From assembly GCF_050920415.1 (NCBI RefSeq), contig NZ_CP169309.1: a stretch of DNA of 64,000 nt; one strand, written 5' to 3'. How positions within the stretch are numbered: the first letter of the stretch is position 1; each line of letters opens with the position of its first letter. Position numbers: made by a program. This DNA comes from Escherichia coli. Its GTDB lineage: Bacteria > Pseudomonadota > Gammaproteobacteria > Enterobacterales > Enterobacteriaceae. Positions 45,521 through 51,500 of this stretch are shown piece after piece.

Positions 45521-48500
45521 TAAGTAAGGTGGTAAGGTCACTCCCCAGGGGGCGTGACCTTATCCATATTTACGCCGGGATTTTGTCAATCTTAGGAATG
45601 CGTGACCACACGCGGTGTGCTGCCATCAGCGTTAACAGTTCATCCATAAAACTACCATCGGCGCTGTCAGCTTCCACAATCCCTTCTTCACCCTGGTCAG
45701 CGACCTTGATTGTTGCTTTAAACTTGCGCGCGTCTCCTGCCAGCGCAATCGGTTTAAGGTGTTTGTAGGCTTCCATCAGGTAGTAGTTGGCATCGCCGTT
45801 GTCAGCGATATCCGCGATATTGCCGCAAGGGACAATAACCGCATCGACCGTTAGCGAAGGCGCTCCGGCAAATGTAGCGGCTATAGGCAGCACCGTACCG
45901 TCATCCGCAGTCACTTCACCCATTCGGGAGTAGAGCAGTTTGGCATGAACGCCTTTGGCCTTCAGCGCCTTGAGAATGGCCAGAAGGTCTGCCGATCTCA
46001 CTTCATCATTAAGCAAAATCGCTACCACGCGACCTTTTACATCACCGTCAGGAATGGCGTACAGACTTAAGGATGGATCCTTTTTCAGACCGTTGACGTC
46101 CGGAGGCGGGGTGATATTCAGCTGGTCGTCAGTCAGTTCGATACCGAGATTTTTCGCCACCGCCTGGGCCAGAGTGAGATCAATATGCGCCAGCTGGTCA
46201 ACAACGCGCTCACGAATATACGGACGAACTACTTTGCTTAACTCAAAGCTGAAACCATCGACAACATGGCGCTGCTCGAACGGCGTCTGACTTAACCAGA
46301 ACAGGCGCGGATGAGAATAATATTCGCCAAATGACGGGCTACGTTCGCGCACCTTATTGCCTTCCACGCGCTCCTGATATGACTCAAAACCGCCACGTTT
46401 TGGCCCTGGTGGTGTTTCGCGCGGCCAGTTATCGTTGATCGAGTTGGGCTCGTAATTCGCCGGGTTAGTGTCGATACCCATGCGGTGCATGCCATCACGC
46501 TGGAAGTTGTGGTATGGGCAGGTCGGGCGGTTAATCGGAATTTCATGGAAATTGGGTCCGCCAAGACGACTGATTTGTGTATCGGTATAGGAGAACAAAC
46601 GTCCCTGTAACAGGGGATCGTTGGTGAAGTCCAGACCAGGAACAATATGGCCTGGATGGAAAGCTGCTTGTTCGTTTTCGGCAAAGAAGTTATCCGGATT
46701 ACGATTAAGCACCATTTTGCCAACACGCTGAACGGGCACCAGTTCTTCCGGGATAAGTTTAGTTGGATCAAGAAGGTCGAAGTCGAACTTAAATTCATCT
46801 TCTTCAGGAATCAACTGGAAGCCCAGTTCGTATTCCGGGAAATCACCCGCTTCAATCGCTTCCCACAACTCGCGGCGGTGGAAGTCCGGGTCACGTCCGG
46901 TTAGTTTTTGTGCTTCATCCCAAACCAGTGAGGCTTTACCGGCCAATGGTTTCCAGTGGAAACGTACGAACGTCGCTTTCCCTTCGGCATTAATCAGGCG
47001 GAAGGTGTGAATACCGAAGCCTTCCATGGTGCGATAGCTGCGCGGGATACCACGATCCGACATGGCCCACATCACGTTATGCAGCGTTTCCGGTTGCAGG
47101 GAAACATAATCCCAGAAGGTGTCGTGAGCACTTTGCCCTTGCGGAATTGCCCAATGCGGTTCTGGTTTTACCGCATGAACAAAATCAGGGAATTTATGCG
47201 CATCCTGGATAAAGAAGATTGGCGTGTTATTGCCAACAAGGTCAAAAATACCCTCTTCGGTATAGAACTTGGTGGCAAAGCCACGGATATCACGCACGGT
47301 ATCGGCAGAGCCAGCACCACCCTGAACGGTAGAGAAACGTACAAATACTGGGGTGATTTTGTTAGGGTCTGACAGAAAATCCGCTTTGGTGATATCGCTT
47401 AAGCTTTTATATGGCTGGAAATAACCGTGAGCGGCTGAGCCGCGCGCATGAACAATTCGTTCCGGGATGCGCTCATGGTCAAAGTGAGTGATTTTCTCGC
47501 GCAGAATAAAATCTTCCAGCAGTGTTGGGCCACGGCTACCGGCGCGTAGGGAGTTTTGATCATCGGCGATGCGTACACCCTGGTTGGTGGTAAGTGCATA
47601 ATTTTCACTACCTTTGCGAACGTCTTCCAGAGAATTGATTTTTTCGTTACGCGTATCAGGGGCTTTCAGACTCCCTGGCGCGGTTGGCTGCGCTCCCGGT
47701 GGCGTCGGTTCAGCCGCTGGACGATGAGATCCGTCCTCAGGTGCCAGTGAGTCCATCCCCGGTTTCGCTTCGCTGGAATCGTGTAGTGGTGACTGGTGCT
47801 GATGTGGGTTCTTTTCGTTATGTTGCGACATTGAACTCGTCTCCTTAATGTATTACTGAAAGGGCCGCTGTTTTGGTCAAAAAACTCTCTAACTATAGAC
47901 CACCAGCCAGATCCCGCTTCGGAGACTATTCTGGAAACGGTGTTATGAAATACACGCAAAGCGGGACGTACAGGGGCTAAATCGGCTAAACTACAGTTTT
48001 TCTGATTTTTAATATGCGTTTAGTGAAGCCAGTAATGAAGAAACCGCTCCGTCAGCAAAACCGCCAGATTATTAGCTATGTCCCACGCACGGAACCCGCG
48101 CCGCCAGAACATGCGATAAAGATGGATTCGTTTCGTGATGTCTGGATGCTGCGTGGCAAATATGTTGCGTTTGTACTGATGGGAGAGTCATTTCTGCGCT
48201 CACCGGCGTTTACTGTGCCTGAATCCGCCCAGCGTTGGGCAAATCAGATCCGCCAGGAAGGGGAAGTGACTGAGTAAGGATTACGTACCTCCCGGTTTGG
48301 CCGGGAGTTACATGGCCTGAAATTCTGTATTTCGATGCAACATTCATTCAAATCACCTGTAACAAAAAGCTGCCTTTAACGATCTATTGCTATAAATAAG
48401 TGATCTTTTTTCTTTAATTGTTTATTTATTTTATAATAGTTAAGTTTAGCTAATCAGAATGAGCTATTTTTGATAGTTCATCCTGTGGCGTTGCCATTAA

Positions 48501-51500
48501 ACTTATATTGTAAATTGCTTAGATTCAAATGAGATAATAATTTTGTTGAAATACGAGGTGGGAGATGTTTTCTACAAACTTAATACAGAGTGATTATGGT
48601 AATTTAAATATTAAAAACCTTGCCTTTAACTCTTTTAAAGAAAGGCTGCAGTCTACCATGACAGCACTCACTTTCTTCATATCAACGGGTCAATGTGCCT
48701 GCGATGAAATAGCAGAATCAAACTTCAATTATATGATTACCTATATGTCTAACATTAACTATGATGCCTCAAAGCCAGGAGCGCCAGCACTTAGTTTTGA
48801 TACATATCTGCAGGACAATGTTAAATATAGAGTGATAATTAATAATCTTTATGGTAGTGAAATTAGGATAAGAGGTATTAATGAGAATTTTGTTGGGATG
48901 GATTTTACCTGTGAATTCCGACCAGAAAAAATGACCAATTTGATCAATATAAAAAACAGGTTGGTTATTCAGTATTTAAGAACGATATACTATGAACAAA
49001 ATTATATACATCCTGTTGGGAGCATTTTTGCTGCGATTCAAAAAAATGAGAGTCTCCTAAAGTTTCCTTCGGTAATATCAATGCTTAATGTCAATCTTCT
49101 TTTTAATCCACTGAATCTTCCGGGAATGGGAAGTGGTGTGCTTGAAGAGATTATGAGCATTTCAGATAGTTCACTTAGAAAACGTCTTGGGTATGAGGTT
49201 TTAAGCTTCTCGCTACAAGCACATTCATTGAGTCAGGAATGTATTGATAAGTTAGCCATTTTTTTCGCTGACGATCTGTTTAAATATGAGTCAGTATGCA
49301 TCGCCGCGATGGAACATTTAAAAAGTAAGGCAACGGCCCCTATACAAAACGGACCGTTGCCAGCATAAGAATTAACGGTGTGCCAGTTCGGCGTCGTCTT
49401 CGCTATCCAGAATGGCTTTATCGGTTTGCTTCAGCCACTGGCTGGTCAGCGTGCCAGCGGTCATCGAGCCACTAACGTTTAGCGCCGTACGGCCCATGTC
49501 GATAAGCGGTTCAACGGAGATTAACAATGCCACCAGCGTTACAGGCAGGCCCATCGCAGGCAGCACAATCAGTGCGGCGAAAGTTGCGCCACCACCGACA
49601 CCGGCAACGCCTGCGGAACTAACGGTAACAATACCGACCAGCGTCGCAATCCACATCGGGTCCAGCGGGTTAATGCCAACCGTAGGCGCAACCATCACCG
49701 CCAGCATTGCCGGATACAAACCGGCACAGCCGTTCTGACCAATGGTCGCACCGAAAGAGGCGGCGAAACTGGCGATGGATTCAGGAACACCGAGTCGACG
49801 CGTTTGTGCTTCCACATTAAGCGGGATAGACGCAGCACTGGAACGGCTGGTAAAGGCAAACGTCAGTACTGGCCATACCTTACGGAAGTACTTCAGCGGG
49901 CTCACGCCATTAATGCCCAGCAGAAGGCCATGCACTGTAAACATAATCAGAAGACCGAGGTAGGACGCGACAACGAAACTTCCCAGTTTGATGATGTCTT
50001 GCAGGTTAGAACCTGCAACCACTTTGGTCATCAGCGCCAGAACGCCGTAAGGGGTCAGCTGCATGACCAGGCGAACCAGTTTCATCACCCAGCTTTGCAG
50101 GGTATCGATAGCGGTTAAGACGCGTTCACCTTTCGGCGCATCATCCTTCAGCAGCTTCAGCGCAGCTACGCCGAGGAATGCGGCAAAAATTACCACGCTG
50201 ATAATTGACGTCGGATTGGCTCCGGTCAGATCGGCAAACGGGTTTTTCGGGATAAAGGACAAGATCAGCTGCGGAACGCTCAGGTCAGAGACTTTACCAA
50301 CATAGTTACTTTCGATGGCGTTCAAACGTGCAGTTTCTGCACCACCCTGAACCAGACCTTCAGCCGTCAAACCAAACAGGTTGGTGACCAGCACACCGAC
50401 CAGCGCCGCAATCAGCGTGGTAAACAAAAGCGTTCCGATGGTCAGAAAACTGATTTTGCCTAACTGTGATGCGTTATGCAGACGGGCAACCGCGCTCAGA
50501 ATAGAGGCGAAGACTAACGGCATAACGATCATTTGCAGCAGTTGAACATAGCCGTTACCAACGATGTTAAACCACTGTACAGAATCTTTAAGTACCTGGC
50601 TGTCAGAACCATAAATGGTATGCAGGGCGAGGCCAAAAACCACACCCATCACCAGACCCACCAGCACTTTTTTCGCCAGACTCCACTGTTTATGGCGGGT
50701 CTGAGCCAGCGCAAACAGCAGTACAACGAACACCACGATGTTCGCAATTAATGGAAAGTTCATCCCCGTTCTCCTGATCTTATTATTTCTATCACTGCGT
50801 AGCAGTCATAGTGTTGGCGCAAGATTAACAGAACTGTGTGCTGGCTCTTATATTCAAATGGAATTGCTTATTCCAGAAAGGCGATTTTTGCCTTTTTAGT
50901 ATTCAACCTGATGCTTAATAAGCCGATGAAACTGGATCTGCAAGGTATTGATCATTTGCGATGACCAACGAACAGCGCTGTTTTCGGGTAATGAATGGGG
51001 CATCCATACCGACCAGACAAATAATGCCATGCAGATAAAACGTTCCAGTTGGTTGCCCTTTTGGGGAACCAGGATAGGCAAGCGGAAACGCCAGCGGCAT
51101 GGCCAGAGCAGGGGAACACCGGCGGGTGTCAGCATATCGGCAAGTATGTGGCTCAAATAACCCAGTACCATTCCCTGCAACGCATCAGCAGGAATAAACC
51201 AGCTTTCAGGAACCTTAAGGTAAAAGGTTGCCAGCAGCGCAAATACCGCCAGCAGACTGTGGGTAAAACCACGATGCCCAAAAGCGCGGGCGATCGGTTT
51301 TGATATCCACTTTAATCGCTGCCCAAGAAACGACTTTGGGTGATCGATGTCCGGTAACAAACACGTCAGGATTGCGGAAGGGACAATATGCCACCAGTCA
51401 CCCTGTGCCAGCACGGGCGTCAGCTCGGCATTTTTGGCAAATACCGCACAAGCAATAGAAAAGAGAAGGTGACCTTCCGCCGTCATGATAAAACTCACTA

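Follow-up and report, generated by a model that had tools for sequence, protein, structure and literature searches.

In the present study we have analysed a window of 64,000 nucleotides from Escherichia coli (contig NZ_CP169309.1) that contains ydjO, a gene for a protein of 267 amino acids located between cedA and tcyP. The results suggest that ydjO lies in a 1.1-kb islet of xenogeneic DNA whose expression is gated by the protein H-NS, an account that, taken as a whole, we consider likely to be correct. The new elements are the exact junctions of the islet, its split between presence in about 78% and absence from 21% of complete E. coli genomes, a homologue in E. albertii, a hyper-divergent block, and a dyad shared with a second gene, yneK.

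The segment 48278-49368 has a guanine-plus-cytosine (GC) content of 0.346 against 0.494 for the whole window, with values of 0.328 in the cedA-ydjO intergenic region (48278-48564) and 0.352 in ydjO (48565-49368, plus strand), the flanking genes katE and tcyP standing at 0.518 and 0.532. Among sliding windows of 1091 bp (mean 0.494, standard deviation 0.044) the segment is about 3.3 standard deviations low and represents the GC minimum of the 64 kb; 0.16% of the windows are equally low and all of them overlap the islet. When compared with the 47 open reading frames (ORFs) of at least 150 amino acids, ydjO has the lowest GC (mean 0.500, standard deviation 0.047), the lowest GC at third codon positions (0.325; mean 0.517, standard deviation 0.065) and the lowest codon adaptation index (0.591; mean 0.705, standard deviation 0.045), calculated with the window's own genes as the reference set. 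The original prediction, made from the sequence alone, of an AT-rich island standing out from its flanks is borne out by these checks, in which both ydjO and the spacer are extreme for the window.

The insertion of this DNA can be read from the sites at which it is missing. When 5,426 complete E. coli genomes were searched with megablast, 4,255 contained the whole region and 1,124 a contiguous cedA-tcyP junction without the islet; a query with the islet only had no match in 1,127. The segment missing from the ydjO-less genomes, approximately 48260-49371, almost coincides with the borders that had been predicted, 48278-49368. In other species, one genome per species was queried with CedA, giving 54 loci, 52 of which have no YdjO-like sequence; where both genes were located, and leaving aside one deletion derivative described below, the cedA-tcyP spacer is 142 bp or shorter in 46 of the 51 loci. 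Most of these short spacers are of 45-70 bp and show an A-run, a GC hairpin and a T-run, that is, a bidirectional intrinsic terminator; the species with short spacers include Citrobacter, Salmonella, Enterobacter, Kluyvera, Leclercia, Atlantibacter, E. whittamii and three other Escherichia lineages. In the empty E. coli allele (AR_0086, L001) cedA is followed by 46 bp containing a hairpin between an A-run and a T-run, and then by the tcyP stop codon, and the C-terminus of its CedA is of the outgroup type (...ENEVEE or similar). Because the empty allele combines an outgroup-type CedA end with the terminator, comparison of the sequences identifies the empty cedA-tcyP site as the ancestral state. 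Wherever the islet is present (E. coli, Escherichia sp. MOD1-EC7003 and E. albertii) CedA ends instead in EGEV(T/A)E; in the window this islet-linked cedA 3' end (...GEVTE*, 48260-48277, plus strand) differs from the empty type at 9 of 18 nucleotides and constitutes the left junction of the insertion, and the right junction falls directly after the tcyP stop codon. The alignments thus indicate that the incoming DNA replaced the terminator together with the last codons of cedA. The horizontal acquisition proposed in the original prediction is in agreement with the empty sites of other species and of E. coli; its foreign origin stands as far as the polarity of the insertion is concerned, with the caveat that the acquisition was ancient and not recent and that neither a donor nor a mobility signature was found.

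The insertion is old, since a homologous islet with an islet-type cedA end occupies the same position in E. albertii. In E. albertii TW07627 (L067, 2992-4264) a 768-bp copy of the insertion sequence (IS) IS1 interrupts the homologue of ydjO near codon 154 and is flanked by a 9-bp target duplication, GGAACACCG. Removal of IS1 and of one copy of the duplication restores an open frame, whose product is 33% identical to the YdjO of the window over 236 residues (E-value 4e-36), and one metagenome contig (L183) holds an uninterrupted ydjO of the E. albertii type. The drafts found for the type strain and for other E. albertii, which carry the same CedA, have contigs that stop within the gene close to the TW07627 insertion point, as would be expected of an assembly broken at an IS copy. 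The E. albertii fragment used as a protein query retrieved one 79-residue fragment only, and this scarcity of matches is likely due to the IS1 split and to assemblies ending there. The chbG-cedA interval of TW07627 contains no katE.

Published work on K-12 connects the locus with H-NS. The ydjO/cedA spacer was described as a 320-bp 'promoter island' (Table 1, entry 1811053_320), foreign by two compositional methods (Nakamura and Lawrence) and bound by H-NS (class K) in the chromatin immunoprecipitation microarray data sets of Kahramanoglou and Oshima, and it was not flagged by IslandViewer or GIST (PMC3661553); the region 48278-48564 is its equivalent in the window. In genomic SELEX (systematic evolution of ligands by exponential enrichment) the spacer is marked 'HNS' and contains an RpoD peak (PMC3946193), with peaks of both the RpoD and the RpoS holoenzymes reported (PMC3946193, PMC5493296). 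In a Δhns strain ydjO shows a log2 change of 1.38 (2.6-fold, P 0.0034) at a log count per million (logCPM) of 1.77, and cedA is unchanged (PMC8894471, Supplementary Data 2). Since three K-12 papers report binding or derepression, the description of the islet as H-NS-silenced is supported by these published K-12 data. Of the features by which H-NS-silenced xenogeneic DNA is recognised, an AT content above that of the host and a derived insertion are found here. A promoter of ydjO was predicted in K-12 as ATGACT-16-AATAAT, under the RpoD SELEX peak (PMC3946193), and its transfer by alignment gives the candidate sigma-70 promoter ATTGCT-16-AATAAT at 48514-48541 on the plus strand, followed by a Shine-Dalgarno sequence, GAGGT (48556-48560, plus strand), that ends 4 nucleotides before the ydjO ATG.

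The same spacer contains an invariant 20-mer, ATGAGCTATTTTTGATAGTT (48459-48478), that belongs to the dyad ATGAnCTAT-N5-ATAGnTCAT (48459-48481), a candidate operator. In an alignment of spacers the 20-mer is identical in the window, in K-12, in a diverged allele class referred to here as the P0024 type, and in E. albertii, and its surroundings across the same four spacers are 20-30% diverged or unalignable. The identity extends to the full dyad in the three E. coli alleles, the last bases differing in E. albertii. The 20-mer is single copy in the window and was not found in viral contigs, and an exact-match scan of metagenome contigs detected it at no fewer than 120 loci, at least. Among the matches listed, 54 belong to the ydjO locus (50 E. 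coli-type contigs, 1 of the E. albertii type and 3 truncated inside it), 65 have another context in common, that of yneK, and 1 is an unrelated contig of 22% GC, probably a chance match; as these loci were chosen by exact match, the lack of variation at yneK follows in part from the way they were selected. In E. coli the second copy (L191, 6683-6702; K-12 NC_000913.3, ~1615682-1615701) overlaps the ptrR stop codon, 61 nucleotides upstream of yneK, and it is also present upstream of yneK in E. albertii-like contigs whose PtrR and YneK are 92% and 68% identical to those of K-12. The gene yneK is an AT-rich orphan seen only in Escherichia and Shigella, derepressed 6-fold in Δhns (P 8e-11), and it is a presence/absence polymorphism like ydjO, because it is reduced to a remnant of 34 codons in E. 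coli LF82 (L192, 2302-2403) and in many metagenome contigs. The homology between YdjO and YneK that the shared dyad might suggest was rejected (BLASTP E-value 0.61, hhalign probability 0.2%). NtrC SELEX lists the yneJ/yneK spacer, and ydjO is not mentioned in the text of that paper; a literature search found the 14-mer core of the dyad, GCTATTTTTGATAG, in no paper. We take the 23-bp dyad to be a probable operator, the real evidence being its conservation across species at both loci. That the dyad, ATGAGCTATTTTTGATAGTTCAT, would be the operator of one factor co-regulating, and perhaps counter-silencing, ydjO and yneK is a tentative suggestion about which we remain rather doubtful. If true, it would define a hidden genus-specific regulon of H-NS-repressed and fast-evolving orphans. 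The shared 20 bp give a concrete handle on what switches both genes on, and hence on their functions, and in this sense the dyad is the only new lead to emerge from the locus.

We propose that foreign AT-rich DNA entered an ancestor within the genus Escherichia, replacing the cedA-tcyP spacer with its terminator and the last codons of cedA. With the islet would have come ydjO and the region that regulates it, and the hairpins at its two ends would now stand where the cedA and tcyP terminators were. In the published K-12 data the spacer is coated by H-NS and bound in vitro by RNA polymerase, and ydjO has a very low basal expression. Expression may be gated by H-NS silencing together with a putative specific DNA-binding factor, whose binding site would be the invariant 23-bp dyad found ahead of both ydjO and yneK. 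The gene is dispensable, as it is absent in 21% of the E. coli genomes and interrupted by IS1 in E. albertii TW07627, and we infer a non-essential, niche-specific role for its product. The simplest history is one ancient insertion and rapid divergence under weak purifying selection, with empty and diverged occupied alleles persisting and being exchanged among Escherichia lineages by homologous recombination.

A number of observations weigh against this account. The effect of Δhns on ydjO is modest, with a P value uncorrected for multiple testing, and the H-NS data come from K-12 and not from the strain of the window. The islet shows no enrichment of the H-NS high-affinity 10-mer TCGATAAATT. 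When it was scanned strictly for the sigma-70 consensus, 2 sites appeared against 4.8 expected, that is, no excess, and the candidate promoter at 48514-48541 was not among them; the published promoter-island call was made on K-12 with PlatProm, a different algorithm. There is no integrase, tRNA (44-53 kb) or border direct repeat at the islet, and the term 'foreign' derives from insertion polarity and composition only, no donor or homologue having been found. With one ORF only, the islet does not have the features of a classical genomic island or integrative element. Regarding the putative factor, the dyad was rejected as a site for PtrR, whose published motif, TTCACGAATCGaGAA, differs from it, and it is not known to fit the consensus of NtrC. 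Finally, the structure model of YdjO is of moderate confidence only, reaching a predicted local distance difference test (pLDDT) score of 66 and a predicted template modelling (pTM) score of 0.59, the other four models scoring 42-55.

The divergence of ydjO is far from that of its surroundings. Between E. coli and E. albertii its nonsynonymous (dN) and synonymous (dS) divergences are 0.65 and 1.56, against 0.012-0.06 and 0.54-0.84 for the neighbours chbF, chbG, cedA, tcyP and ydjM. Compared with the P0024-type allele (L006), which belongs to a class shared by E. coli and other Escherichia species, the window contains a hyper-divergent block of ~680 bp (48380-49060), comprising the regulatory region and ydjO codons 1-165, in which 20-30% of positions differ per 100 bp, with at most 1% of difference on both sides. 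Within the block dS is 0.96 and dN/dS 0.175, and its sharp edges indicate a recombination mosaic. A further stretch in katE (46500-47600) differs from the L006 genome by 5-11% per 100 bp (dS 0.23, dN/dS 0.002), with cedA and tcyP at no more than 1-2%, and on this pattern of differences it is a second recombination block beside the islet.

Such divergence might be that of an arms race, in which YdjO would be part of a conflict system as a secreted effector, a toxin or immunity protein, or an anti-phage factor. A dN 10-50 times that of the neighbours, deep allelic classes shuffled by recombination and a polymorphic presence are in line with this possibility, as are a distribution that fits the E. 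coli, Shigella and E. albertii group and an N-terminus rich in Ser, Asn and Ile. Membership in a defence system was rejected, PADLOC giving zero matches, and we consider a conflict role for YdjO unlikely.

The two ends of the islet are formed by stable hairpins. The stem-loop after the cedA stop codon (48285-48311, plus strand; inverted repeat I14) folds as RNA with -22.7 kcal/mol (z -3.0) and stands where the ancestral bidirectional terminator was; no clean U-tract follows it. The other (49329-49361, minus strand; I17) lies in the last 13 codons of ydjO, has a folding energy of -22.4 kcal/mol (z -3.9) and is followed on the minus strand by UUACUUUUUAAAU. Because a U-rich tail thus follows the hairpin on that strand, where a sequence scan also lists a terminator-like site, this element is probably the tcyP terminator, supplied by the islet. 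An Rfam search gave only a meaningless match to NRON (E-value 0.3). These cis-acting parts could be what is selected, with the hairpins terminating cedA and tcyP, an AT-rich H-NS patch insulating the convergent genes, and ydjO as a passenger. The presence of stable hairpins at both ends, where the ancestral terminator was lost, and the position of the U-tailed minus-strand hairpin in conserved ydjO codons would agree with such a role; moreover, ydjO and ydjN (tcyP) are both transcriptome-responsive in serum-exposed extraintestinal pathogenic E. coli (PMC4145685), which could reflect read-through. However, a passenger role leaves unexplained both the purifying selection along the whole 267-codon ORF and the conserved dyad upstream of it, and the ancestral terminator did the same job in 46 bp, with far less DNA; we regard it as improbable that ydjO is carried in this way.

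The codon-level comparisons identify ydjO as a real gene under purifying selection. Its dN/dS, 0.20 when K-12 is the comparison and 0.23 with the P0024-type allele, ranges from 0.17 to 0.26 over all comparisons. The frame of 267 codons is intact despite 113 substitutions in 165 codons, the ORF being kept across alleles 24% diverged in DNA, and 73 invariant residues are distributed over the full length of the protein. It could be argued that ydjO is a chance ORF in an AT-rich, H-NS-coated spacer, since its expression is very low (logCPM 1.77), YdjO has no domain, family or fold, the gene is missing in 21% of the genomes and truncated variants exist. A chance ORF would be at odds with the constraint seen in every comparison, with the length maintained even at the 33% amino-acid identity of the E. 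albertii homologue, with the invariant residues along the whole protein and with the well-placed Shine-Dalgarno sequence, and is for these reasons very unlikely. Regarding the truncated variants, ydjO contains a homopolymer of seven adenines (A7; 49040-49046, plus strand), and an A8 variant truncates the product at 'AAIQKK*'. The A8 tract, seen in at least one assembly (L070, 1987-1994), gives a 165-residue product, and 2,273 member sequences make up the cluster of such truncated forms; in the complete genomes nearest to the A8 query (99.3% identical) the aligned stretch is shorter than the query by one base, which points to A7.

No relative of YdjO was found outside Escherichia among ~15 billion proteins. 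Word-seeded searching across 5.8 billion protein clusters recovered 23 proteins; wherever a source is named it is E. coli, and the cluster at 79% identity has members from E. coli or other Escherichia species. A HMMER search of 1.84 billion representatives found only high-identity YdjO fragments and an apparent remote relative, P0061 (27% identity, E-value 6e-36), which was rejected as a homologue after being recognised as E. coli ydjO with the bases A and G interchanged throughout: among 406 differences over 780 aligned positions, 243 are A>G and 136 are G>A. Its contig (L005) is a Logan assembly of SRR33321306, and the swap is an artefact of that run. Large protein collections contain base-swap artefacts of this type, which can be mistaken for remote relatives. 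The phyletic check suggested with the original prediction therefore leaves ydjO confined to Escherichia, and the absence of a recognisable domain, also noted there, was upheld by profile and fold searches without a real match. YdjO has no match in Pfam, PHROG or PADLOC, and its NCBIfam match to the MAG6410 lipoprotein is noise (15 bits against a cut-off of 450). A phage origin was rejected on the negative results of tblastn against phages, a peptide scan of viral contigs, PHROGs and a BFVD fold search, and a plasmid origin after the three matches in plasmid collections turned out to be mislabelled chromosomes. No fold match was found for the structure model, which tentatively depicts a soluble cytoplasmic protein with an alpha/beta domain at about residues 18-143 and a helical domain at about 154-255. 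With no homologue outside the genus and with signs of functional coding, ydjO corresponds to a taxonomically restricted orphan gene.

The islet might also be ancestral, the ydjO-less genomes representing losses by deletion. Deletions do occur: in Escherichia sp. MOD1-EC7003 (L010, 4264-4462) a deletion between two GACGATCT repeats has left only 194 bp of the islet, and E. coli ES4 has lost the region through IS1 activity. However, the former, a true deletion derivative, retains the islet-type cedA end, both terminal hairpins and the last 32 codons of ydjO, whereas the empty sites have the ENEVEE-type CedA end of the outgroups and the bidirectional terminator, which a deletion could not recreate, and 52 of the 54 other species have no YdjO-like sequence; an ancestral islet is thus extremely improbable. 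Equally improbable is a de novo birth of ydjO in the cedA-tcyP spacer by AT drift and ORF formation, which would account for the lack of homologues outside Escherichia and of a mobility signature, but not for an ancestral spacer of 45-70 bp in most species that shares no sequence with the islet, for the presence or absence of the islet as a single 1.1-kb block with sharp junctions, or for the absence of islet-alignable spacers of intermediate length in the 54 species loci and, among the matches listed, in the metagenome loci (at least 120).

In ES4 (L003), IS1 copies flank the deletion, which spans most of chbF through ydjO, and in strain ABW_A19 (H5) an IS5-like element lies inside the matched region. 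DNA bound by H-NS has been reported to attract transposition, and the recurrence of IS elements at this locus fits with it. The local gene order in the window is chbF, chbG, katE (45570-47831, minus strand), cedA (48014-48277, plus strand), ydjO (48565-49368, plus strand), tcyP (49372-50763, minus strand) and ydjM (minus strand); the ORF and annotation results, which include RefSeq entries for ydjO and the protein YdjO, agree with the names katE, cedA, ydjO and tcyP given initially. The best match to the window is NZ_CP169399, with 99.9% identity, and K-12 is ~95.5% identical across the locus. The sole other low-GC stretches of the window, at ~56.2-59.2 kb, contain a 632-residue ORF (56695-58593, minus strand) with a GC of 0.392, a third-position GC of 0.363 and, after ydjO, the lowest codon adaptation of the window.

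As a kind of object the islet is ordinary and already known, and this specific instance figures in published lists. It resembles the H-NS-silenced islets and promoter islands of K-12 (PMC3661553; PMC3923964, PMC8894471) in being AT-rich and inserted with respect to sister taxa, and in having a spacer bound by H-NS and RNA polymerase, a low basal expression and derepression in Δhns; it differs from them in being tiny (1.1 kb with one gene), old, and only 2.6-fold derepressed. Together with YahL and YjfZ, YdjO has been listed among the 'conserved signature proteins' of E. coli and Shigella (PMC11057252). The restriction of YdjO to Escherichia and Shigella is reproduced here in far larger databases, but the protein is not in all strains, being missing from 21% of complete E. 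coli genomes, and it is not strictly confined to E. coli and Shigella, as E. albertii and cryptic Escherichia carry diverged copies. YahL and YjfZ are unrelated to YdjO: despite their similar length, they were rejected as paralogues (BLASTP E-values 1.9 and 85), and Pfam DUF2686 matches YjfZ and not YdjO. The same study proposed ydjO as a quantitative PCR (qPCR) marker of E. coli and Shigella for water testing, with the lowest detection rate (93%) (PMC11057252); because ~21% of complete E. coli genomes are without ydjO, such an assay should miss those lineages. A further parallel is provided by the yneK islet (ptrR-yneK-ydeA), which also consists of a single AT-rich (yneK 32-45% GC), Escherichia-only orphan, derepressed in Δhns and preceded by the identical 20-bp dyad, with the difference that YneK is 68% identical between E. 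coli and E. albertii-like contigs and YdjO 33%. The cedA-tcyP locus thus offers a clean natural case in which an ancestral empty site and an old insertion coexist across Escherichia.

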